From an uncultured Flavobacteriales bacterium (GTDB lineage: Bacteria; Bacteroidota; Bacteroidia; Flavobacteriales; BACL11), in NCBI GenBank assembly GCA_905478555.1, contig CAJQIZ010000024.1, positions 8,300 to 72,299 on the forward strand: a stretch of 64,000 nucleotides of DNA, in the 5' to 3' direction. Below, piece after piece: positions 23,184-61,952 of the stretch. The number at the start of each line of letters is the position of its first letter. The stretch's first letter is position 1. A program made the translations under genes and the position numbers. The notes beneath the pieces were generated by a model. The model was given only the letters and a program-made list of their open reading frames with translations. It was not told the origin of the DNA and made no database searches.

Positions 23184-23207
23184 AGGTTCGAATCCTGCTA
23201 CCCCGAC
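23184..23207 (+). repeat. att core copy 1: tRNA-Pro 3' fragment AGGTTCGAATCCTGCTACCCCGAC
   Basis: T-loop TTCGAAT plus acceptor strand TACCCCGA of Bacteroidota tRNA-Pro; begins immediately after the M28 TAA, 5' tRNA half absent. Confidence 0.85.
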
Positions 23208-23213
23208 ACTTTT

Positions 23214-23241
23214 CTCCCCGAAAATCACTGATTTTCGGGAG
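23214..23241 (+). terminator. hairpin just inside the island's left end
   Basis: cccgaaaatc-act-gattttcggg stem; no strong U tail. Confidence 0.45.
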
Positions 23242-23534
23242 TAACACACTGATTACCAAGCCCAAGAACATAAGATTTAGAAATTATTTTATAAAATAAT
23301 TTTTTACCCCCTTTTATCAGATAATGCCACCAAAAAAAATGTAAAACGGTGCAAATTCTGGTGAAAGAAAATTGGAGTAAAAATTTTCTTCTTTTTTCAT
23401 CATTAAAAAAATCATCTTTTTGCATCTGTAAACGTATATCTTTAAAGATAATTTATATTTATTTTTAAAGATAACTTATTGATAATCAATTTATTAAATG
23501 GTAACTATATTGTATAATTTAATAAATTTGTAAG

Positions 23535-24779
23535 ATGAAAAAACAGTTATTAGTAAGCTTCTTGGCAAGAAAATCAATGATGAAGAAAAATGGCATGGCG
23601 CCAATTTATTGTCGTGTGAGATATGACGACACCACAACTAAGTTTAGTACTAAAATAGATGTGCCGTATATAAATTGGGATTCCAAAAGAACACGCGTAA
23701 TAGGTAATAGTAAAAAAGCAATGAATTTGCAATTAGAAACGATTCGTATAGAAATAATAGAGAAATACGAAGAGCTTACTAAAGCGAATGTAGTAGTTAC
23801 TTCCAAAAAAATAGTAGATTACTATAAAAATGAAATGGTTATTATGAATTCTATAGTAAATGTAGTTATAGAACATAATAAAAACATGAAATCTCTAATT
23901 GGCAAAGAATACTCTTATGGCTCTTTTAAAAATTATAAAACGACTCTTAAGCATTTACGTAGTTATATTAAAGAAACTTATAGTAAAAAAGACGTATTAC
24001 TAAGTAAAGTAGATTATCATTTTATCTCTCATTTTTCTCTCTATATTTTGAAAGAGACAGAATGTAATAATAATGGTATGATGAAGCATATGCAAAGGCT
24101 TAAGAAAATTATTAATTTCTCTCTTAAGAATAACTACATAACAAATGATCCATTTACTGGATTTAAAATAAGCTTTAAAAGAACAAATAGAGTTTACTTA
24201 ACAAAAGAAGAATTACTTACTATTTCGCAAGTAACATTAAATGAAAGCTTAAGTAAAGTAAGAGACGTTTTTTTGTTCTCTTGCTACACGGGTCTTTCGT
24301 ACGTAGATTTATACAATTTGAAAAAAGAAAACATAAAGAGCGGTAATGATGGATTAGAGTGGATTTACATAAAGCGTAGTAAAACAAACATTCCTTCTAA
24401 TTTACCTCTCTTGCCACCTGCTTTCTCTCTTTTGAAAAAATATAGAGAAATAGAGAAGAAAAATAGAGAGAACAAAGAGAACGCAAGAGAAAAAATAGAA
24501 AGAAATAGAGAAAATAGAGTGTTTCCAATGATTAGTAATCAAAAGACAAATAAAGCTCTTAAAGAAATTTCTCTTTTATGTAATTTTAATAAGAAGATTA
24601 CTTTTCATAGTGCTCGCCATACTTTTGCTACGACCGTTACTTTAACAAACGGAGTGCCTATAGAAACAGTCTCTAAAATGCTTGGACATAATAATATAAG
24701 AACTACTCAAATTTATGCTCGAGTAATTGATTCAAAAATTAGTTCTGATATGCTTATTTTAAGAAATAAAATATTTTAA
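23535..24779 (+). CDS. Bacteroidota tyrosine integrase (arm-binding + SAM-like + catalytic domains)
   Basis: APIYCRV arm domain, YTGLSYVD, RSKT, FHSARHTF, MLGH, TQIYA. Confidence 0.93.
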   Translation: MKKQLLVSFLARKSMMKKNGMAPIYCRVRYDDTTTKFSTKIDVPYINWDSKRTRVIGNSKKAMNLQLETIRIEIIEKYEELTKANVVVTSKKIVDYYKNEMVIMNSIVNVVIEHNKNMKSLIGKEYSYGSFKNYKTTLKHLRSYIKETYSKKDVLLSKVDYHFISHFSLYILKETECNNNGMMKHMQRLKKIINFSLKNNYITNDPFTGFKISFKRTNRVYLTKEELLTISQVTLNESLSKVRDVFLFSCYTGLSYVDLYNLKKENIKSGNDGLEWIYIKRSKTNIPSNLPLLPPAFSLLKKYREIEKKNRENKENAREKIERNRENRVFPMISNQKTNKALKEISLLCNFNKKITFHSARHTFATTVTLTNGVPIETVSKMLGHNNIRTTQIYARVIDSKISSDMLILRNKIF

Positions 24780-24849
24780 TTATTAACAAGACTATAGAAT
24801 AAATGAAACATTATTGAGAAACAAATAATTAAATTATAAATTTGCTAGT

Positions 24850-26085
24850 ATGTCTAAAAAAATAAAAGTAATTGAATTATTTGCTGGCGTTGGAGGATTT
24901 CGTCTTGGATTAGAGAAGAGTAATTATAAAATTGTTTGGAGTAACCAATGGGAACCGTCAACCAAGAAGCAACATGCCTCAATGGTTTATGAAGCACGTT
25001 TTGGAAAAGCAAATCACTCAAACGAAAATATCAATGAGGTTGTATCTAGAAATGTAGAGGAAATTCCAGATCATGATTTATTAGTTGGTGGATTTCCTTG
25101 TCAGGATTATTCTGTTGCAACTACATTACATAATTCAAAAGGGTTAAAAGGTAAAAAAGGAGTTCTTTGGTGGTCAATTCATAAAATTCTAGAAAACAAG
25201 AAGAATAAACCAAAATATTTGTTTTTAGAAAATGTTGATAGGCTTCTAAAATCACCAGTTAGTCAAAGAGGGCGTGATTTTGCAGTAATGCTACAAAGTT
25301 TAAATAATTTGGGATATGCAGTAGAATGGAGAGTAATAAATGCAGCAGAATACGGAATGCCACAGAGAAGAAGAAGAATTTTCTTTCTTGCTTATCATAA
25401 ATCTACAGAAGTTTATAAAACACTTCAAAAGTCTAATAAAATCGATTGGATTATAAAAGAAGGAACGATTGCTAGTGCTTTTCCAGTCATTCAATCAAAT
25501 GTAATGCAAGAATTTCAGTTAAGAGGTAATTTGGTAGAAATAACCAACGAATTCAATAAAACTGGCAAAATATCACCTTTCCTAAATACCGGATTATTGA
25601 TTAAAGGAAAAGTTTATACAACAAAAACGAAGCCTAAATATAATGGCCAAAAAACTGTATTAGGTGATATATTACAAAATGGAGAAGTGAGCTCTGAATT
25701 CTTTATTGATGAAAATGACAAGCCTAAATGGGAATACTTAAAGGGTGCTAAAAAAGAAAAAAGAAAAACTAAGAATGGATTTGAATACAATTATACTGAA
25801 GGCGGAATGATTTACCCTGATGCATTAGATAATGCCTCAAGAACTATAATTACTGGAGAAGGAGGAAAATCTCCTTCAAGATTTAAACATGTAGTTGATT
25901 CTGATAGAGGTTTAAGAAGATTAACACCTGTCGAATTAGAAAGACTGAATATGTTTCCTATTAACCACACTAAACTTGATAATATTACTGATGCAAAAAG
26001 AGCATTCTTTATGGGGAATGCACTTGTTGTTGGAGTGGTAGAGAAAATAGGAGATGTTCTTTTTAGAAAGATAAGATCTCTCTAG
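24850..26085 (+). CDS. dcm: DNA (cytosine-5)-methyltransferase, M.Sau3AI-like
   Basis: ELFAGVGG, GGFPCQDYS, ENVDRLLKSP..QRGRDF, QRRRR, MGNA; strongly resembles M.Sau3AI as recalled. Confidence 0.92.
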   Translation: MSKKIKVIELFAGVGGFRLGLEKSNYKIVWSNQWEPSTKKQHASMVYEARFGKANHSNENINEVVSRNVEEIPDHDLLVGGFPCQDYSVATTLHNSKGLKGKKGVLWWSIHKILENKKNKPKYLFLENVDRLLKSPVSQRGRDFAVMLQSLNNLGYAVEWRVINAAEYGMPQRRRRIFFLAYHKSTEVYKTLQKSNKIDWIIKEGTIASAFPVIQSNVMQEFQLRGNLVEITNEFNKTGKISPFLNTGLLIKGKVYTTKTKPKYNGQKTVLGDILQNGEVSSEFFIDENDKPKWEYLKGAKKEKRKTKNGFEYNYTEGGMIYPDALDNASRTIITGEGGKSPSRFKHVVDSDRGLRRLTPVELERLNMFPINHTKLDNITDAKRAFFMGNALVVGVVEKIGDVLFRKIRSL

Positions 26086-26674
26086 TTTCTTTTTCTATTA
26101 TGAAACTTTCAGGTGAGGTAAGTCCAATTAGAACTATTGGTGTTGATATAAGATTATGATATGGTTTAAAGTATTCCTTAAATTTTTCAAAAGTACCAAT
26201 TGCTCCATCAAAATTTCCTGATTTCTTTAGTTCTTCAGTAGCAACAATTATTATTCCTAATTCTGTTTTGATTTCTTTTTCTACATGATTTAATTCACTT
26301 GCTAAAACAGGCTTCATGATATTATGAGCAGTTGCTTCTTGGTGATTAAATGCAACTTCAATTGAAATGAAGTTTTTTGCAAAATCTAACCTCCATCTAC
26401 TTCTGTTGGATTTATTATAAGGAGGCTCTTTAAATAATCCACTTTCAGAATTCCAACCTAAATTTTCTAACCTTTCCTTAAGTAAACTATTAATTGGTTC
26501 AGACAAACTCTTAATATTTTTTCTTGTTGTTTTTCTAGAGTTAAATTCTTTAATCAGATCTGAATCAGAGATAGAATCAATAACCTTAATTATTTGACTA
26601 TAATCTTTTTTAAACTTATTGTCATGTTCAACTAATACGTTTGAGTTCCTATGATTATAGATTGAGTAGTTCAT
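26063..26674 (-). CDS. BglII/BstYI-family type II restriction endonuclease
   Basis: RLDFAKNFISIEVAFNH PD-(D/E)xK-like core, LGIIIVAT; convergent with the MTase. Confidence 0.72.
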   Translation of the reverse strand: MNYSIYNHRNSNVLVEHDNKFKKDYSQIIKVIDSISDSDLIKEFNSRKTTRKNIKSLSEPINSLLKERLENLGWNSESGLFKEPPYNKSNRSRWRLDFAKNFISIEVAFNHQEATAHNIMKPVLASELNHVEKEIKTELGIIIVATEELKKSGNFDGAIGTFEKFKEYFKPYHNLISTPIVLIGLTSPESFIIEKETREILSF

Positions 26675-26704
26675 ATTTTTTTAATAGAGAAATAATTTAG
26701 ATGC

Positions 26705-28561
26705 TTAATATTTAAAGTCAGTGATATAAGCCTTCTTTATGTAATCTGCTAATATTTTTGTTCTTTTGTCAATCTCTGAAGGGCTGGATATAAAGTCTGA
26801 AGTAGTTAGATTTTCTTCATTTAACTTTTCAAAATTATAATCTCCATCTGTCTTTTCATTTGTTTCAATAAATTCTTTAGTAATTAGAGTTTTGGATTCC
26901 GCATTATTGAGTAGTTTTAATTTCTCTACGTGAGATTTATTTTGCATTTCACCATTTAATGATGCATCTATAATTAAGATATTGCCTAATTTATTTTCGT
27001 GTGCTCTACTAATATCTTTCGAGATGTCCCAATTGTCTTGTGCTTCCTGTGGCATGTAATGTTCTATAGAATGATTTTGTTGATTATGGAATGATCCATT
27101 TAAAACAAGTTCCTCAATATCACCAAAAATAGTATGAATAAGATGTTTGTTATTATTGTCATGTTTTATTTTATTGATTCCCTCATAATATTCTTCATTT
27201 AGGACTTTATAAACATCGATAGTTTTCTTTACATATCCATCAAAATGATTCTTGAAGGCTTTTTTTACATCTTTGTTGGACTTTTCATGGTCTTGAGGAA
27301 AATCAATTAATGATTTATTTATTGCTTTTGACAACTTATACATTGCAGGCGTAAAATCTCTTGTAGGAAATGAAAAGATATTAAAATGTAAAAATGAGAA
27401 AACAAAATGTTTCCTAAATATCTTTACAAGATAATTATCTTTATTTATAATTGAAACTTGTCTTTCATTTAATTTTGTTTCATAATCTAAAAGTGTAAAG
27501 ATTGGAATAATCCAAGATTTATTTCTTATAAATCTAAAACAATTCAAATATCTCATATAAACAGCTGAGTGCCTTGGATTTGAATTTGCAGACGGGTAAT
27601 GAACTTTAAATGAATTATAGTCTTTACAGTTAAATATGTTTTCAAATGTTTTAGATGATAATTCTAAATCATGAAAGAATTCTAACCATTTATCAGAATC
27701 ACTCTTGAATTCTTTTTTCATAGAAGTAAATAGATGTTTTTTTCCAACAGGTTTGAATTTTGCAATCCAATAATAATGCATAAACTCAATAAATGAGAAT
27801 CCTGTTAATGATAATCTATTATTTATTTTATTCCATCTATCATCTAAATCTTCAAGATCTTTATCATTAAGTCTGGCATGTTTAATTAATATATTCTTTA
27901 CCAATTCTGAGGCATTTAATTGTTCTCCTCTATGATTAACTGACTCAAAAATTTCAATACCTAAGACTATGTCAGAAATAGTCATCTCTACAACTTCTAG
28001 TTCAGATAACCTTTGTTTATAAAGTTTGTAAAATTCATCAGTATTATTATTGGTGTTTAGATAATCTTCTACTTGCGTATAAAAGTATAAATATGCTTTA
28101 TAAATCTCCTTTTCTATTTTAGTATTTCCATTTTCTGGTTCTTTATGAATATCACTGTTTTGAAAATTGAGAGTAAAATAATTTGCAATAGTTTTACTTA
28201 CAATTAATTTAGGTTTATCGTCAAATCCAATAATAAATTGTCTTAAGATTGCTCCTGCATTTATAACATCATCATTTTCCACTAATACATCTATAATCGC
28301 TTTTGATAAAATAGTTAATGTTGTAATCCTTTGCTGTCCGTCAAAAATCTGTTTTGGTTCTCCAATTATTTCTGGCTCTAGGAAGATAAAACTTCCAAGA
28401 AATGTGTCTTGGTCTTCTATTGAGAAAAATGAGTTCCACATTGTTTCCCAGTTTCCCTTTGACCATGTATATGACCTTTGGTTATATGGTATCTTATTTG
28501 GTATATTAGTGGAAATTATCTCATAAAGTGATTTTGTTGTACTTATAACTTTTTTTGACAT
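26705..28561 (-). CDS. DUF262-DUF1524 (GmrSD-like) nuclease
   Basis: QRSYTW, DGQQR, FESVNHRG; C-terminal SIEHYMPQ...LGN...N HNH. Confidence 0.88.
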   Translation of the reverse strand: MSKKVISTTKSLYEIISTNIPNKIPYNQRSYTWSKGNWETMWNSFFSIEDQDTFLGSFIFLEPEIIGEPKQIFDGQQRITTLTILSKAIIDVLVENDDVINAGAILRQFIIGFDDKPKLIVSKTIANYFTLNFQNSDIHKEPENGNTKIEKEIYKAYLYFYTQVEDYLNTNNNTDEFYKLYKQRLSELEVVEMTISDIVLGIEIFESVNHRGEQLNASELVKNILIKHARLNDKDLEDLDDRWNKINNRLSLTGFSFIEFMHYYWIAKFKPVGKKHLFTSMKKEFKSDSDKWLEFFHDLELSSKTFENIFNCKDYNSFKVHYPSANSNPRHSAVYMRYLNCFRFIRNKSWIIPIFTLLDYETKLNERQVSIINKDNYLVKIFRKHFVFSFLHFNIFSFPTRDFTPAMYKLSKAINKSLIDFPQDHEKSNKDVKKAFKNHFDGYVKKTIDVYKVLNEEYYEGINKIKHDNNNKHLIHTIFGDIEELVLNGSFHNQQNHSIEHYMPQEAQDNWDISKDISRAHENKLGNILIIDASLNGEMQNKSHVEKLKLLNNAESKTLITKEFIETNEKTDGDYNFEKLNEENLTTSDFISSPSEIDKRTKILADYIKKAYITDFKY

Positions 28562-28657
28562 TATTTTATTCTTTTAATTTAATGCTAATTTATATATTTA
28601 TTTTTTAAAATAACGAATTACTCTTAAATTTCAATTATTTTTTTAATTTTGGCTTAC

Positions 28658-28756
28658 TAGATTGATTAGCGGTGCAAAAAGCGGAGCAATTTTTAGTTTG
28701 AATGCTTGCTGTAATCATGTAAAAAGGTGTTAGGTTGTAATCCTGCTACCCCGACT
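28658..28756 (+). repeat. 99-bp arm + att core copy 2 (island right end)
   Basis: 96/99 identical to the reverse complement of 52167-52265 by manual alignment. Confidence 0.92.
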
Positions 28757-28973
28757 AAAAAATTCATGTTGTGTGACCTGGATATGGGATGCGAATTCAG
28801 GAGTTTGGGCTAAGATGGGTAGTATGACCTCTATAGGAGAGATAGGATCATTTGACAAAAAGATAATGAAAGTAGTTGATATCTTAGTTAGAGAATCTAA
28901 AGATTTAAAAAATCAAACTCTCTTTTATATCTATGACGATGGAACAGTAAAGAAAAGAATAGTTATAGAATAA
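28757..28973 (+). pseudogene. 5'-truncated remnant of a YDDGTV-tail secreted protein
   Basis: Ends KVVDILVRE...LFYIYDDGTVKKRIVIE like the 51-53 kb proteins; no leader or signal peptide; frame runs back into the core. Confidence 0.75.
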
Positions 28974-29033
28974 AATTATTTTAAAAAAGTTGTTTTAATT
29001 AGACAATCTAATTAATTCTTTAAGTTTGCTTTT

Positions 29034-51059: not shown

Positions 51060-51207
51060 AATCAAAAGTTTAAACTTCTTAGTGACTATATAAATGAACA
51101 TCACCATGAGAGTGTTCATTTGTGTCTGACTTAATGGCTAGATCCTCTTGATTTTCCTCTGGCATCTCATGTGGAATTTCTGATTAGAAAAAACTTTTAA
51201 AAATAAT

Positions 51208-52122
51208 TTATTCAATAATTATTCTCTTTTCTACCGTTCCATCATCATAAAGATAAAATAGTGGAGAATTTGGTTTTTCATTAACTGTCCTGCCTAATAA
51301 ATCAATAATCTTATAAGGTCTTTCATTGTATAATTGATTATCTAATCCAGAAAATATTTTTTCTATACTAAACTTATTAAACCCATATACACCGTAAGAT
51401 ATTCCATTTCCCATACCTCTCCAAGAATACCAATGTATATTATTATCCCAAGTATCATAACAACCAAACTCTTGAGTAGAATTATCATATCCTATACCTA
51501 CTACAAAGTGATCTGTCAAATCATCCCCATCAGTATCGACTAATATAATTACTGGTTTATTATTATCAATTTCCATCTTATATTCATCCCAGCTAATACT
51601 AGAATAATACTCATATTCTGTATTTGTAATATAATTTGGATTTCTAAAATATATATAATCCTCAAAGGCAGTTCCAATGTCACTAGACCAACTCCATCCC
51701 CAATAATTACCACAGACACTCATTGATGTTTTCATAAAATCTGCAATTGAATTATTCTGATGAGGAATACCTGTTTCAGAAATGTCTTGTAATAAATTTG
51801 GGTAATAATCCTGTGGTAATGAATAATCATCATAATGTTCATTACTAGCAATTAACATATTGATATTATTTGTTTGAAGCAACGTGCTATCATCATACAG
51901 ATCATAAAACCCATGCAAATCGTAGAAACCAACAATCATGCCTAATGCTGTAGGGCCACAGCCTCTATGCCATATATATGTAGGCATCTCATCTATTAAA
52001 ACAACGTTACTTTTATTTAGATTCCCAATAGGCACATTTAATGGTCTCATATTATAGCCTCTACTTTGTTGTGCAAAAACTAGAGTAGGTATAAAAAATG
52101 ATATTAGCAATAGTTTTTTCAT
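51208..52122 (-). CDS. secreted C39-like/papain-fold peptidase with YDDGTV C-terminal tail (cassette B)
   Basis: Signal peptide; GCGPTA (Cys), DHFVV (His), YDTW (Asp); tail KIIDLLGR...YLYDDGTVEKRIIIE. Confidence 0.72.
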   Translation of the reverse strand: MKKLLLISFFIPTLVFAQQSRGYNMRPLNVPIGNLNKSNVVLIDEMPTYIWHRGCGPTALGMIVGFYDLHGFYDLYDDSTLLQTNNINMLIASNEHYDDYSLPQDYYPNLLQDISETGIPHQNNSIADFMKTSMSVCGNYWGWSWSSDIGTAFEDYIYFRNPNYITNTEYEYYSSISWDEYKMEIDNNKPVIILVDTDGDDLTDHFVVGIGYDNSTQEFGCYDTWDNNIHWYSWRGMGNGISYGVYGFNKFSIEKIFSGLDNQLYNERPYKIIDLLGRTVNEKPNSPLFYLYDDGTVEKRIIIE

Positions 52123-52167
52123 AAAGCAAACTTACAAAAAATAATGAAAAATATTGAAGTGAAAAAA
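52123..52167 (-). promoter_or_regulatory. 45-nt cassette leader with TAAGTTTG -7 promoter box
   Basis: 39/45 identical to 53609-53653; Bacteroidota TAnnTTTG consensus 4 nt before the ATG. Confidence 0.8.
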
Positions 52168-52265
52168 GTCGGGGTAGCAGGATTACAACCTAACACCTAT
52201 TTACATGATTACAGCAAGTTTTCAAACTAAAAATTGCTCCGCTTTTTGCACCGCTAATCAATCTA
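52167..52265 (-). repeat. 99-bp arm + att core copy 3 (junction of cassettes A and B)
   Basis: Reverse complement 96/99 identical to 28658-28756. Confidence 0.92.
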
Positions 52266-52324
52266 CTAAAACAAACTTAAAAAAATAATTGGAATATCTG
52301 ATTAGAAAATGCTTTTTAAAATAA

Positions 52325-53608
52325 TTATTCTACAACTATTCTTTTTTCTACTGTTCCATCATCATAGATTTCAATAAATGGAGTGTGAGTTTGAGGTTTA
52401 GTTTCTTTTCCTAGTATATCAACTGTCTTTTGTAGGTTTCTGTTTGGATTTATAGGAATATTGAATGTTGAGGTTATGTTTCCATTTCCATCTGTTTTTA
52501 TTAGATAGATATCACTAAATCCCCATCCTCCAGTAGTTCCTGTAATGATATAGCCTCCATCAGTGGTTTGTTGAACAGAATGACCTACGTCATCATCTGT
52601 TCCTCCAAATGTTTTACTCCATTGTTCTGTTCCATTACCATCTGTTTTTATTAGATAGACATCAAGACCTCCACTTCCTAAAGATTCTGTACTTCCTGTA
52701 ATGATACAACCTCCATCAGTGGTTTGTTGAACAGAACTACCTATATCATCTCCTACTCCTCCAAATATTTGACTCCATTGTTCTATACCATTTCCATCTG
52801 TTTTTATTAGATAGAGATCATGGTTAAATGCTAAATTATAATCTGATCCTGTAATGATATATCCTCCATCAGCGGTTTGTTGAACAGAATAACTGAAAGA
52901 GGAATGAGTACTACTAAAGTTTTCAGTCCATTGCTCTATTCCATTACCATCTGTTTTTATTAGACAGGTATAAAAGGAAGATCCAGACTTTGTACGTCCT
53001 GTAATAATATATCCTCCATCATTAGTTTGTTGAACGGAAGAACCCCAATCATCTCCTGTACCTCCAAATGTTTTACTCCATTGTTCTGTTCCATTACCAT
53101 CTGTTTTTATTAGATAGACATCAAGACCTCCACTTCCTAAAGACTCTGTACTTCCTGTAATAATATATCCTCCATCAGAGGTTTGTTGAACTGATGTACC
53201 ATAATCATAACTTGTTCCTCCAAAAGTTTGACTCCATAACTCTACTCCATTAACATCTGTTTTGATGAGATAGACATCATCCCCATTCGCAAATGAAGTT
53301 GTATATCCCGTTATGATATAACCTCCATCAGTGGTTTGTTGAACTGATTTACCTTCATCAGCATCTGTTCCTCCAAAAGTTTGACTCCACTGATCTACTC
53401 CATAAGCATCTGTTTTTAGGAGATAAACATCACTAGATCCATTTCCATTTCCATAAGAATGGGTTAATCCTGTAATGATATAACCTCCATCTGTGGTTTG
53501 TTGGACAGATTGACCAACATCTGCTGATGCTCCTCCAAAAGTTGTTTCCCATCCTTGCCCAAATCCAATCAAAGGCACACATAGTAAAATCAATAGTAAT
53601 TTTTTCAT
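52325..53608 (-). CDS. secreted beta-propeller-like repeat protein with YDDGTV C-terminal tail (cassette A)
   Basis: Seven ~51-aa repeats WSxTFGG..D.G.SVQQTTDGGYIITG..DVYLIKTDGNG; tail KTVDILGK...IYDDGTVEKRIVVE. Confidence 0.85.
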   Translation of the reverse strand: MKKLLLILLCVPLIGFGQGWETTFGGASADVGQSVQQTTDGGYIITGLTHSYGNGNGSSDVYLLKTDAYGVDQWSQTFGGTDADEGKSVQQTTDGGYIITGYTTSFANGDDVYLIKTDVNGVELWSQTFGGTSYDYGTSVQQTSDGGYIITGSTESLGSGGLDVYLIKTDGNGTEQWSKTFGGTGDDWGSSVQQTNDGGYIITGRTKSGSSFYTCLIKTDGNGIEQWTENFSSTHSSFSYSVQQTADGGYIITGSDYNLAFNHDLYLIKTDGNGIEQWSQIFGGVGDDIGSSVQQTTDGGCIITGSTESLGSGGLDVYLIKTDGNGTEQWSKTFGGTDDDVGHSVQQTTDGGYIITGTTGGWGFSDIYLIKTDGNGNITSTFNIPINPNRNLQKTVDILGKETKPQTHTPFIEIYDDGTVEKRIVVE

Positions 53609-53653
53609 AAAGCAAACTTACAGAAAATTATGGGAAATGTTGAAGAGAAAAAA
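53609..53653 (-). promoter_or_regulatory. 45-nt cassette leader with TAAGTTTG -7 promoter box
   Basis: Same length as, and 39/45 identical to, 52123-52167. Confidence 0.8.
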
Positions 53654-53677
53654 GTCGGGGTAGCAGGATTATAACCT
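53654..53677 (-). repeat. att core copy 4 AGGTTATAATCCTGCTACCCCGAC
   Basis: Begins 1 nt after the sdhB stop codon; the 17-bp core is exact. Confidence 0.88.
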
Positions 53678-53678
53678 T

Positions 53679-54431
53679 TTAATTCTCAGAAGTAATAGAA
53701 GCAGATAAATATTCTCTATTCATTTTTGCAATGTATTCAATAGAAATACTTTTCGGACATTCTACCTCACACGCTCCAGTATTGGTGCAATTCCCAAAAC
53801 CTTCTTTATCCATTTGCTCTACCATATTCAACACTCTTTGTTTTCGCTCTAACTGGCCCTGTGGTAAATAAGCAAATTGAGAAACCTTAGCCGCCACAAA
53901 CAACATAGCAGAAGAGTTTTTACAAGTAGCAACACAAGCACCACAACCAATACAAGCCGCAACATCAAAAGCCTTATCCGCATTCATTTTAGGAATTGGT
54001 AATGCATTTGCATCTTGTGTATTACCAGAAGTATTTACAGATACAAAACCTCCAGATTGTTGTATTCTTTCAAATGAACTTCTATCTACAATTAAATCTT
54101 TTACTACTGGCATGGATGCCGAACGCCAAGGTTCAACATAGATCGTTTCTCCATCTTCAAACATTCGCATGTGCAGCTGACAAGTAGTTACTTTTCTGTC
54201 AGGACCGTGCGCCTCCCCATTAATATAAAGCGAACAAGATCCACAAATTCCTTCTCTGCAATCATGATCAAAAGCAACAGGTTCTGTGCCTTCCATAATT
54301 AAATGTTCATTCATTACATCCAGCATTTCTAAGAATGAAGAGTTTTCTGAAATTCCAGTAACTTTATAAGTTTCTAAACCTCCCTTATCTTCTCTATTTT
54401 TCTGTCTCCAGACTTTTAGTGTTAAATCCAT
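53679..54431 (-). CDS. sdhB: succinate dehydrogenase iron-sulfur subunit
   Basis: [28 protein letters not shown]. Confidence 0.96.
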
Positions 54432-60161: not shown

Positions 60162-60485
60162 ATGATAAAAATAAGTAATTCCGCAAAAGATAGATTATTA
60201 CATTTACTACATAAAGATGATAAAGAAAATTCATTTGTAAGAGTAGGTGTAGAAAGTGGAGGATGTTCAGGTTTAAGTTATAAATTAGACTTTGATAGCC
60301 TAAAAAATGAAGATGATGAACTAATTGAAGATAATAATATTAAACTTTTGATAAATAAAAAGAGTTTTTTGTATTTAGTTGGTACAACTTTAGAGTTTTC
60401 TGATGGACTAAACGGAAAAGGATTTGTTTTTAATAACCCAAACGCCAGTAGAACTTGTGGATGTGGTGAAAGTTTCTCCTTATAA
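60162..60485 (+). CDS. HesB/IscA/SufA Fe-S carrier
   Basis: GGCSG and TCGCGESF. Confidence 0.93.
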   Translation: MIKISNSAKDRLLHLLHKDDKENSFVRVGVESGGCSGLSYKLDFDSLKNEDDELIEDNNIKLLINKKSFLYLVGTTLEFSDGLNGKGFVFNNPNASRTCGCGESFSL

Positions 60486-60494
60486 AATTAAAAG

Positions 60495-61952
60495 ATGAGT
60501 GAAAAGAAACAACAATCGGAAGATAAGTTATTAGAAAAAGTAACTACAACCGAATACAAATATGGATTTACAACTGACATAGAATCAGATACTATTCCAA
60601 AAGGACTTTCAGAAGATGTTGTACGTATTATTTCTGAAAAGAAAAATGAACCACAATGGATGTTAGATTACCGACTAAAAGCATATAACGCTTGGTTAGA
60701 GATGGAAGAGCCAGTATGGGCAAATGTTAGTTATGCAAAACCAAATTATCAAGACGTAATTTATTATTCTGCACCAAAACAAAAACCTGTTTTAGATAGT
60801 TTAGATGATTTGGATCCAGAAATGAAAAAGATGTTTGATAAGCTGGGGATTTCCATTGATGAGCAAAATAAATTGGCAAATGTAGCGGTAGACATTGTTA
60901 TGGATTCTGTTTCAGTAGCTACCTCATTTAAGGAAAAACTTAGAGATTTAGGAATTATTTTTTGCTCTATCTCTGATGCAATTCAAGACCATCCAGAATT
61001 AGTGAAAAAGTATTTAGGAACAGTTGTTCCTGCAAGAGATAATTTTTTCTCAGCACTTAATGCGGCAGTATTTTCTGATGGTTCATTTTGCTATATTCCA
61101 AAAGGAGTAAAATGCCCAATGGAACTTTCTACTTACTTCCGAATTAACGAAGCAGGAACAGGACAATTTGAAAGAACATTATTAATTGCAGATGAAGGAT
61201 CACAAGTAAGTTATTTAGAAGGATGTACTGCTCCAATGAGAGATGAAAATCAATTACATGCTGCAGTAGTAGAACTTATAGCAATGGATGATGCGGATAT
61301 AAAATATTCAACTGTACAAAATTGGTACCCAGGAAATACTGAAGGGGTTGGTGGAGTTTTCAACTTTGTAACTAAAAGAGGAATCTGCTATAAAAACGCT
61401 AAAATTTCTTGGACACAAGTAGAGACTGGATCAGCTGTTACTTGGAAATATCCTTCTTGTATTTTAAAAGGAGATAATTCTATTGGAGAGTTTTTCTCGG
61501 TAGCGGTTACCAATAACATGCAACAAGCCGATACAGGAACTAAAATGATACACCTTGGGAAAAATACTAAGAGTACCATTATTGCAAAAGGTATATCAGC
61601 AGGAAAAAGTAATGGAAACTATAGAGGGTTAGTCAAAATATCAAAAGGAGCAACTAACTCCAGAAACTTTTCGCAATGTGATTCTTTATTAATGGGAGAT
61701 AAATGTGGTTCTCATACCTTCCCGTATATTGAAGTAAAAAATAACTCTTCCAAAGTAGAGCATGAAGCAACAACATCAAAAATTGGAGAGGATCAAATAT
61801 TTTACTGTAACCAAAGAGGGATTGGAACAGAAGCAGCAATTGCACTAATCGTAAATGGTTATTGTAAAGATGTACTGAACCAGTTACCAATGGAATTTGC
61901 AGTAGAAGCACAAAAATTATTAGAAATCAGCCTAGAAGGGTCTGTAGGCTAA
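60495..61952 (+). CDS. sufB: Fe-S cluster assembly protein SufB
   Basis: [23 protein letters not shown]. Confidence 0.97.

Follow-up and report, generated by a model that had tools for sequence, protein, structure and literature searches.

The window analysed here is a stretch of 64,000 nucleotides from an uncultured Flavobacteriales bacterium of the BACL11 lineage (assembly GCA_905478555.1, contig CAJQIZ010000024.1, positions 8,300 to 72,299), and our subject is a 1,486-bp unit behind its sdhB gene, cassette A, together with the repeats that bound it. The repeat listing of the window contains a 105-nt direct repeat (52087-52191 and 53573-53677, 82% identical, spacing 1,486 bp), within whose copies sit two 24-bp cores (AGGTTnnAATCCTGCTACCCCGAC), c3 at 52168-52191 and c4 at 53654-53677, both on the minus strand and differing solely at T-loop position 3 (TTGTAAT in c3, TTATAAT in c4). 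Read in the direction of sdhB, all on the minus strand, core c4 is of the attL type: it stands one base past the sdhB stop codon with no arm upstream, and it matches the repeat profile at positions 168-256 (core and promoter only). A T-run and promoter-like segment follow (53609-53653, with TAAGTTTG at 53613-53620, directly before the ATG), then the cassette A gene (52325-53608, 427 aa), which is the single real open reading frame (ORF) between the cores, an arm of the P-arm type (52192-52324, containing GCGGTGCAAAAAGCGGAGCAA) and core c3, where arm, core and promoter form a junction (profile positions 27-258). The protein has a signal-peptide-like N-terminus, eight repeats of about 51 aa with weak SBBP/delta-60 repeat matches below the cut-off, and a C-terminal tail ending in ...IYDDGTVEKRIVVE; domain scans gave no recombinase or transfer domain in it, and there is no integrase in the unit. 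The core pattern occurred 16 times in the 1.79-Mb genome and 0 times in the reversed control, which excludes chance.

On the plus strand of the same window lies an island that does carry an integrase (23184-28755). Its cores c1 (23184-23207) and c2 (28732-28755) are direct and 5,548 bp apart. Core c1, the island attL, directly follows the stop codon of an M28 peptidase gene rather than a tRNA (ARAGORN found no tRNA in the window), and its sequence equals the final 24 nt of tRNA-Pro(TGG), with the T-loop TTCGAAT. Next come a P' arm (23208-23534, plus strand) with two GGTG[CA]AA motifs 12 nt apart, a tyrosine integrase of 414 aa (23535-24779, plus strand; Arm-DNA-bind_5, Phage_int_SAM_5 and Phage_integrase domains, with HxxR and the catalytic-Tyr region present), and cargo at 24850-28561 consisting of a C5 methyltransferase (plus), a BglII-like endonuclease (minus) and a GmrSD-like nuclease (minus). 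At the right end, repeat comparison placed a P arm at 28602-28731 (plus strand), followed by the attR-type core c2 (plus strand, profile positions 30-193), at whose last base the repeat similarity stops. With four encoded proteins, namely an integrase, a methyltransferase and two nucleases, the label of defence island is fair. This was the only integrase of its type found in the genome. It has TGLSY at the place of the first Arg of most tyrosine recombinases, a feature that we take to be like that of IntDOT, and the nearest relatives found in Flavobacterium and Phocaeicola are only about 40% identical; among seven distant relatives identity was at most 40% in six, and one 45-residue segment reached 60% in the other.

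The original prediction had read cassette A as two direct cores 1,486 bp apart around one gene for a secreted repeat protein, and had given the island cores a spacing of 5,548 bp and the island a defence-type cargo; both descriptions were borne out. It had further described an integrase-less unit bounded by att-like cores, and this also agrees with what we observed: the distal end of cassette A consists of arm and core like the attR of the island with the genome's only such integrase found, and the proximal end is a core without arm. The product that it had foreseen for recombination from core to core, consisting of arm, core, promoter and gene, is consistent with the layout of the unit.

The claim of a particular kinship between cassette A and the island fared differently. 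Reverse-complemented, the island right end (28602-28756) aligns with 52167-52321 over 155 nt at 87% identity. An arm identity of 96/99 had been predicted, which is right if the 24-bp core is counted together with 75 nt of arm, and is not right for the arm alone, where we counted 92/99 for 99 nt (110/130 over 130 nt). Moreover, the arm of cassette A shares 95% identity with each of three arms from contig C30 of the same genome and 93% with the island arm, and the profile of the repeat gave 28 hits in the 1.79-Mb genome. With its arm nearer to those of C30 and the module spread through genome and family, a special tie of cassette A to this island is not supported; what holds is that both are members of one family. 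An alignment of ten copies revealed one conserved module of about 210-250 nt, in the order of a segment right after the upstream stop codon, the arm, the core, a T-run, the TAAGTTTG promoter-like motif and ATGAAAAAA; the arm holds direct 9-mers, GCGGTGCAA..GCGGAGCAA. We equate TAAGTTTG with TAnnTTTG, which we take to be the Bacteroidota -7 promoter motif. A TAnnTTTG-like motif stands directly before the ATG in full junctions, and judging by this position the segment would act as the cassette's own promoter. Copies of the repeat are 85-98% identical over 100-200 nt, and the arm is nearly invariant across 46 distinct copies that were picked with a 29-mer of the arm. On contig C30 (2574-15654) ten units form an array in one orientation with unrelated genes between the repeats. 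Some genes of this array are on the opposite strand (ORFs of 315, 462 and 167 aa). A unit of about 1.6 kb at C21:78525-80204 of the same genome combines a core with a P'-like, integrase-side flank, an arm and a core, and has ORFs of 91 and 375 aa and no integrase.

The core proved to be a piece of a tRNA gene: tRNA-Pro(TGG) at C40:3746-3823 of the window's genome ends in the same 24 nt, which make up its T-stem, T-loop and acceptor 3' strand. Orthologues of the island integrase (65-72% identity) were present in 6 of the 60 other family genomes searched, and in five of these six relatives the integrase lies about 330 bp behind tRNA-Pro(TGG), itself after tRNA-Ser(GCT); in the sixth it lies behind arm and core. 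In all three islands whose far end was retrieved, that end is again arm and core, followed by further cassettes. The segment of about 330 bp from core to integrase start, which is the P' arm, is conserved in 7/7 islands, and its GGTG[CA]AA motifs resemble the CGGTGCAAA repeats of the arm, so that CGGTGCAAA-type repeats occur both in the P arm and in the P' arm of 7/7 islands; the N-terminal arm-binding domain of the integrase may have its arm-type sites in these GGTGCAAA-type repeats. The tRNA-Pro locus was found in three states, empty in the window's genome, with cassettes and no integrase in G005, G020 and contigs L057, L066 and L085, and with integrase island plus cassettes in relatives (G-numbers denote related genomes, G000 being the window's own, and L-numbers the loci or contigs compared). 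In the window's genome the tRNA-Ser(GCT)/tRNA-Pro(TGG) pair at C40:3746-3978, the canonical attachment site in relatives, is unoccupied, and the island sits behind M28 instead.

Matches to the module were present in 28 of 41 related genomes searched, with identity up to 95% between species, and all seven genomes of the genus, the window's included, had 10-20 listed matches each. The exact 29-mer of the arm was found in at least 119 marine metagenome stretches, 80 of which were taken as loci and gave 177 profile hits; adjacent cores in these 80 loci had the same orientation in 70/70 pairs, at spacings of 323-5,666 bp. An exact 31-mer of the arm matched 0 viral contigs, and an exact 31-mer of the sdhB end matched 0 metagenome contigs. 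Metagenome depth over 52113-52313 was 73, 1000, 141 and 338 in four runs from four studies, against about 5-20 in flanking bins, as would be expected of a high-copy repeat. Loci from metagenomes and from relatives, pooled with the genome's own contigs, supplied 94 core-to-core units (median 878 bp). The longest ORF was co-directional with the promoter in 82 of the 93 units having an ORF, and 49 of these 82 proteins had a signal-peptide-like N-terminus. A Pfam family (E<=1e-5) was assigned to 24 of 75 scanned cassette proteins, the other 51 having none, and the domains included PKD, LRR, MORN, SprB, beta-helix, TPR, collagen, DUF285, peptidases C92, M43 and CHAP, and polysaccharide lyase. Mobility proteins or remnants of mobility genes were found neither in cassette A nor among the 75 scanned cassette proteins.

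Several features recur among the cargo. A membrane protein family of about 110-145 aa (N-terminus ..NVSYASFPV) appears in cassettes at different loci and in different genomes (C30:7743-8126, C4:59608-60039 and 60256-60609, L077:1009-1395, L027 of G010, L045 of G051). A umuD/umuC-like pair borders the array end at different loci in two genomes, behind the tRNA-Met array in the window's genome (C22:4102-6122) and behind M28 in L048 (G005:C34), which suggests exchange between arrays. Otherwise unrelated cassette proteins have a C-terminal tail in common (12/93 by a loose pattern); the form ..[FIL]Y.[DNS]DGTVEK[KR]IIIE was seen in the window at 52325-52374, 51208-51260 and 28924-28973 and also in many cassette proteins of other loci. 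The tail had no Pfam or NCBIfam match, and a Pfam search at E<=10 with the C-terminal 99 aa of the A and B proteins or with the 66-aa remnant gave no Por_Secre_tail match, on which ground we set aside its reading as a signal of the type IX secretion system.

Such a collection could also be viewed as a regulatory intergenic module, that is, a 3' untranslated region or terminator plus promoter, or a small RNA gene, which spread with paralogous secreted-protein genes by duplication and concerted evolution. The promoter-like TAnnTTTG motifs, the end of the module at the ATG, and the frequency of signal-peptide-like N-termini and of the common tail given above fit this idea. We nevertheless hold it to be improbable, because the cargo is unrelated in sequence (PKD, LRR, MORN, SprB, peptidases, lyase, and 51/75 without a Pfam family) and because the module contains a 3' fragment of tRNA-Pro and the arrays begin at the tRNA-Pro gene. 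No relevant Rfam family was found, the one hit being a chance match to snoJ33 (E=0.25), and a terminator scan gave no terminator-like site at arm or core. Compensatory change was seen in 0/21 predicted pairs and the consensus fold was weak (-7.8 kcal/mol), a comparison of 46 near-invariant, 29-mer-selected copies that has little power.

Further, we found that boundaries of the module accumulate at the edges of its core. Among partial copies, 25/149 matches start at query positions 138-143 (core start 140) and 41/149 end at 162-172 (core end 163), the 149 being those transcribed from the match table of 41 genomes. Of the metagenome hits, 135 were internal to their contigs, and of these 71 had arm, core and promoter, 24 arm and core only, and 18 core and promoter only. 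The four cores of the window follow the same modular pattern: c4 after sdhB and c1 after M28 are arm-less and begin with the core itself, c2 has arm and core, and c3 is a full junction. The T-loop divides in step with the arm, since cores preceded by an arm had TTGTAAT in 124/133 cases and the tRNA-type TTCGAAT in 0/133, tRNA-Pro genes had TTGTAAT in 0/8 and TTCGAAT in 8/8, and arm-less cores had TTGTAAT in 8/26 and TTCGAAT in 9/26. The loop sequence thus travels with the left side, as attL = B-O-P' and attR = P-O-B' predict if the exchange takes place at the loop or to its right. Arm-less cores of tRNA type at four metagenome positions (L063:1292, L094:365, L104:5287, L118:4517) share the left flank ..aaaatttgrtttgtagttttyagtatag, perhaps because they mark a further conserved secondary site or belong to a degenerate tRNA.

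A miniature inverted-repeat transposable element (MITE)-like, non-autonomous transposon of about 150-210 bp, inserting between genes and donating a promoter, would likewise be short, of high copy number and intergenic, and the depth spike over 52113-52313 in 4/4 runs would be expected of it. Against such an element, array orientation is strictly uniform (70/70), partial copies break at the tRNA-derived core, and the same arm and core form the attR end of integrase islands. The repeat listing showed no inverted-repeat pair within the unit, and inspection by eye, without a dedicated scan, showed no terminal inverted repeats or target duplications. We consider a transposon of this kind highly improbable.

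On balance we presume that cassette A is one unit of a lineage-wide set of integrase-less, single-gene cassettes that were accreted site-specifically and can be mobilised in trans, like cis-mobilisable elements (CIMEs) on one side and integron cassettes on the other, and we judge this reading to be probable. Each cassette would be laid out as core, own promoter, gene, arm of about 130 nt and next core, with a 24-bp core that reproduces the T-arm and the acceptor 3' strand of tRNA-Pro(TGG). Site-specific recombination by a tyrosine recombinase would pile up cassettes and integrase islands head to tail, both at the tRNA-Pro gene itself and at secondary cores, of which those after sdhB and M28 are examples, with strand exchange presumably at the T-loop or just 3' of it. 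The island, which supplies the sole cognate integrase found in the genome, shares P arm and core with the cassettes, so that its integrase would act on them too; working in trans in the manner of CIMEs, this enzyme could release cassette A as a circle of 1,486 bp or insert such circles again. The cassette system may be active today.

Comparison of closely similar loci revealed changes at the repeats. The arrays of G020 and G005, each with tRNA-Pro, a cassette and a second cassette encoding a 58%-identical homologue of the cassette A protein, are 99.4% identical over 2,626 bp and unrelated just after a core. These two genomes (L035, contig C6, and L036, contig C36) are placed in different genera, and an array of such identity reflects either recent transfer or a binning problem. 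Between L077 and contig C4 of the window's genome exactly one repeat-to-repeat unit of 616 bp differs while the flanks are 96% identical, which is a gain or loss of one cassette. L057 and L112 have one cassette in common behind unrelated neighbours, and their last mismatch in the repeat is in the T-loop. BLAST gave four pairs of at least 97% identity, but where a BLAST match ends does not locate a crossover within a conserved repeat. An association of arm variant with gene family was uninformative, since one variant dominates.

The strongest competitor of site-specific accretion takes the repeats as fossil att scars: past site-specific events would have left repeats of about 210 bp that are now only substrates of RecA, in deletion, duplication, inversion or allelic replacement after DNA uptake, and cassette A would not be excised by integrase. 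Repeats with 85-98% identity over 100-200 nt suit homologous recombination, and two of the pairs just described speak for it, since the mismatches between G020 and G005 begin about 55 nt inside the arm and not at the core, and the arms of L077 and C4 differ by about 8%, more than their flanks at 1-2%. Therefore, homologous recombination or gene conversion among the repeats is also at work, and its share and that of site-specific exchange cannot be separated here. On the other side, homologous recombination alone leaves unexplained that first copies start and last copies end exactly at the core, that a tRNA-type T-loop never follows an arm (0/133), and that the arm is nearly invariant across the 46 copies, which had been selected with the arm 29-mer. 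We regard purely fossil scars as rather unlikely.

Apart from the two pairs, other observations count against accretion by an active integrase, and two of them, the cassettes' lack of a P' arm and the arrays in genomes with no integrase found, also suit fossil scars. Just 4 pairs among 53 full copies were informative, one sharing the left and three the right side by flank identity, a noisy measure. Lambda-type excision normally needs a P' arm, and the cassettes are without the conserved P' arm of the islands. Arrays persist where no integrase was found: at E<=1e-30 there was no integrase match in 5 of the 6 other genomes of the genus (completeness 81-99%), yet all six hold the repeat (10-20 matches listed each). 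No core-like sequence lies behind sdhB in 7 of 9 sdhB loci of relatives, which leaves the arrival of the first core at sdhB unexplained; among the nine, G011 shows at this place a degenerate core, a promoter, a gene for a His-rich secreted protein and a degenerate arm and core, and the G042 stretch ends after 167 nt with no core hit. Finally, no circle, empty site or adequately anchored junction was recovered in the short assembled (Logan) contigs of four of 20 listed metagenome runs (X1, X5, X7 and X8), where contigs break at the repeat. A contig of run X1 (record 3) stops at 52190, within the repeat, and joints seen in such contigs had shorter sides of only 18-32 nt or came possibly from paralogous C-termini (52286->51172 and alike); gene B was uncovered in run X8, and uncovered parts were not counted as evidence.

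Beyond core c3 the window continues on the minus strand with cassette B, consisting of a promoter-like segment (52123-52167), a gene for a secreted, Peptidase_C39_2-like protein of 304 aa (51208-52122), and a truncated arm (51170-51207) that has only the first approximately 40 nt and no core. Behind island core c2 lies a decayed cassette on the plus strand (28756-29033), in which the C-terminal 50 nt of a tail-bearing gene (28924-28973) are followed by an arm of which the first approximately 59 nt are left and whose end serves as promoter-like sequence of a CN-hydrolase gene. Comparison with G009 and G016 (2/2 relatives compared) shows that the block of about 23.4 kb which includes both this cassette and cassette B (28756-52167) has the opposite orientation to that expected from its M28 and sdhB flanks, and so is inverted. 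The order in these relatives is sdhB(+), CN-hydrolase(+), a 350-aa gene(-), RNR(-), ... a GCGE-tail gene(+), [DEAD helicase(+)] and M28(-), whereas the window has M28(+) and sdhB(-) as flanks and keeps the internal order of the block from CN-hydrolase to DEAD; the adjacency of sdhB and CN-hydrolase exists also in G023, and M28 is convergent with the GCGE-tail gene in G050, G051, G057 and G069.

The endpoints of the inversion are the inverted copies of arm and core at c2 on the left and c3 on the right (28602-28755 and 52168-52321), which share 155 nt at 87%. It follows from these endpoints that one ancestral locus read sdhB, core, A, arm, core, decayed cassette and CN-hydrolase, and the other M28, core, island, arm, core, B, (truncated arm) and DEAD. 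By this reconstruction the decayed cassette ancestrally lay downstream of cassette A, cassette B behind the island at the M28 locus, and sdhB-A and B would be parts of two ancestral loci joined by the inversion. Either the integrase or RecA, the latter working on these 155 nt, could have been the agent, and shared sequence of this length at the endpoints is a further point that suits fossil scars. Chromosomal inversions driven by an integrase between att-related sites are described for Thermococcales (PMC5495485); there, too, a large inversion has its endpoints at inverted, att-related copies of an integrative element, and the present case differs in that integrase or RecA could be the agent. 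One and the same gene for a His-rich secreted protein is found after sdhB in G011 (L020), where core and arm are degenerate, and after M28 in G068 (L043), which suggests that flips between these two sites recur in the family. The sdhB protein (53679-54431) is 92-93% identical to those of genomes of genera g10 and g11 and only 75% identical to that of G005 of the same genus, M28 being about 75% identical to all; a different sdh paralogue, transfer or odd genus labels could be behind this.

Among known systems, CIMEs are the closest. PMC5704250 describes them as elements that are without integration genes, keep attL and attR and accrete in tandem at tRNA att sites with elements of the ICESt1 type. 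The likeness consists in integrase-less units with attL and attR that are lined up with an element carrying an integrase, the site comprising a tRNA 3' end, and mobilisation by the integrase of a related element would be expected. Cassette A itself has the attL and attR flanks and has no integration or transfer genes. The cassettes here differ from CIMEs in that they are not visibly decayed integrative and conjugative or integrative and mobilisable elements, their conserved promoter and arm suggesting a dedicated cassette form. They are also small (0.3-5.7 kb, median 878 bp), mostly single-gene, with their own promoter and a conserved arm of about 130 nt, and a genome has dozens of them, with as many as 10 in one array, also at secondary, non-tRNA sites.

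With integrons the cassettes have in common the co-oriented, mostly single-ORF units of similar size, a conserved recombination site at each junction, a tyrosine recombinase linked to the array and a diverse, mostly unknown cargo. However, the island integrase is not IntI (51.7 bits with the integron-integrase model TIGR02249 against a cut-off of 265, and the domains Arm-DNA-bind_5/SAM_5/Phage_integrase), the cassettes have promoter-like motifs of their own, unlike the promoterless cassettes of integrons, the site derives from tRNA-Pro, and most arrays have no adjacent integrase. A conserved or covarying hairpin of the attC type was not found, in a test made weak by invariant columns and 29-mer-selected copies. 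The island agrees with tRNA-targeting islands, in which the integrase lies by a tRNA and each end carries a direct repeat of the tRNA 3' end: its own direct cores are 5,548 bp apart, and orthologous islands lie at tRNA-Pro in 5/6 relatives. Bacteroidota have integrases of the IntDOT/NBU type, and the 3' ends of tRNA genes serve NBU-like elements as insertion sites. The island integrase resembles these in its three domains (Arm-DNA-bind_5, Phage_int_SAM_5 and Phage_integrase) and its tRNA 3'-end target; it differs in that the nearest relatives found in Flavobacterium and Phocaeicola are only about 40% identical, and the island is without mobilisation genes, carrying a restriction/defence set alongside a large integrase-less cassette family. 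We found no description of such a cassette system in the literature searched, subscription journals and supplementary files lying outside its scope.

A wider interpretation, which we offer tentatively as possible, is that marine Flavobacteriia with small genomes possess an independent gene-capture platform analogous to integrons. An IntDOT-family integrase would recombine promoter-bearing single-gene cassettes by means of a tRNA-Pro T-arm core and an arm of about 130 nt, arrays would form at tRNA-Pro and secondary cores, secreted and surface proteins would be diversified across populations, chromosomal inversions would arise between arrays, and cassette A would be an active member yielding a 1,486-bp circle. 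A short att module (24-bp core and arm) and a single integrase of 414 aa make the system directly testable in vitro. If active, it would stand beside integrons as a second cassette-array system of independent evolutionary origin; the ocean lineage that has it is abundant and its genomes are streamlined. It would then account for synteny breaks at such sites and, with its mainly secreted and surface cargo, offer a concrete, testable explanation of how the surface-protein content of marine Bacteroidota populations comes to be hypervariable.

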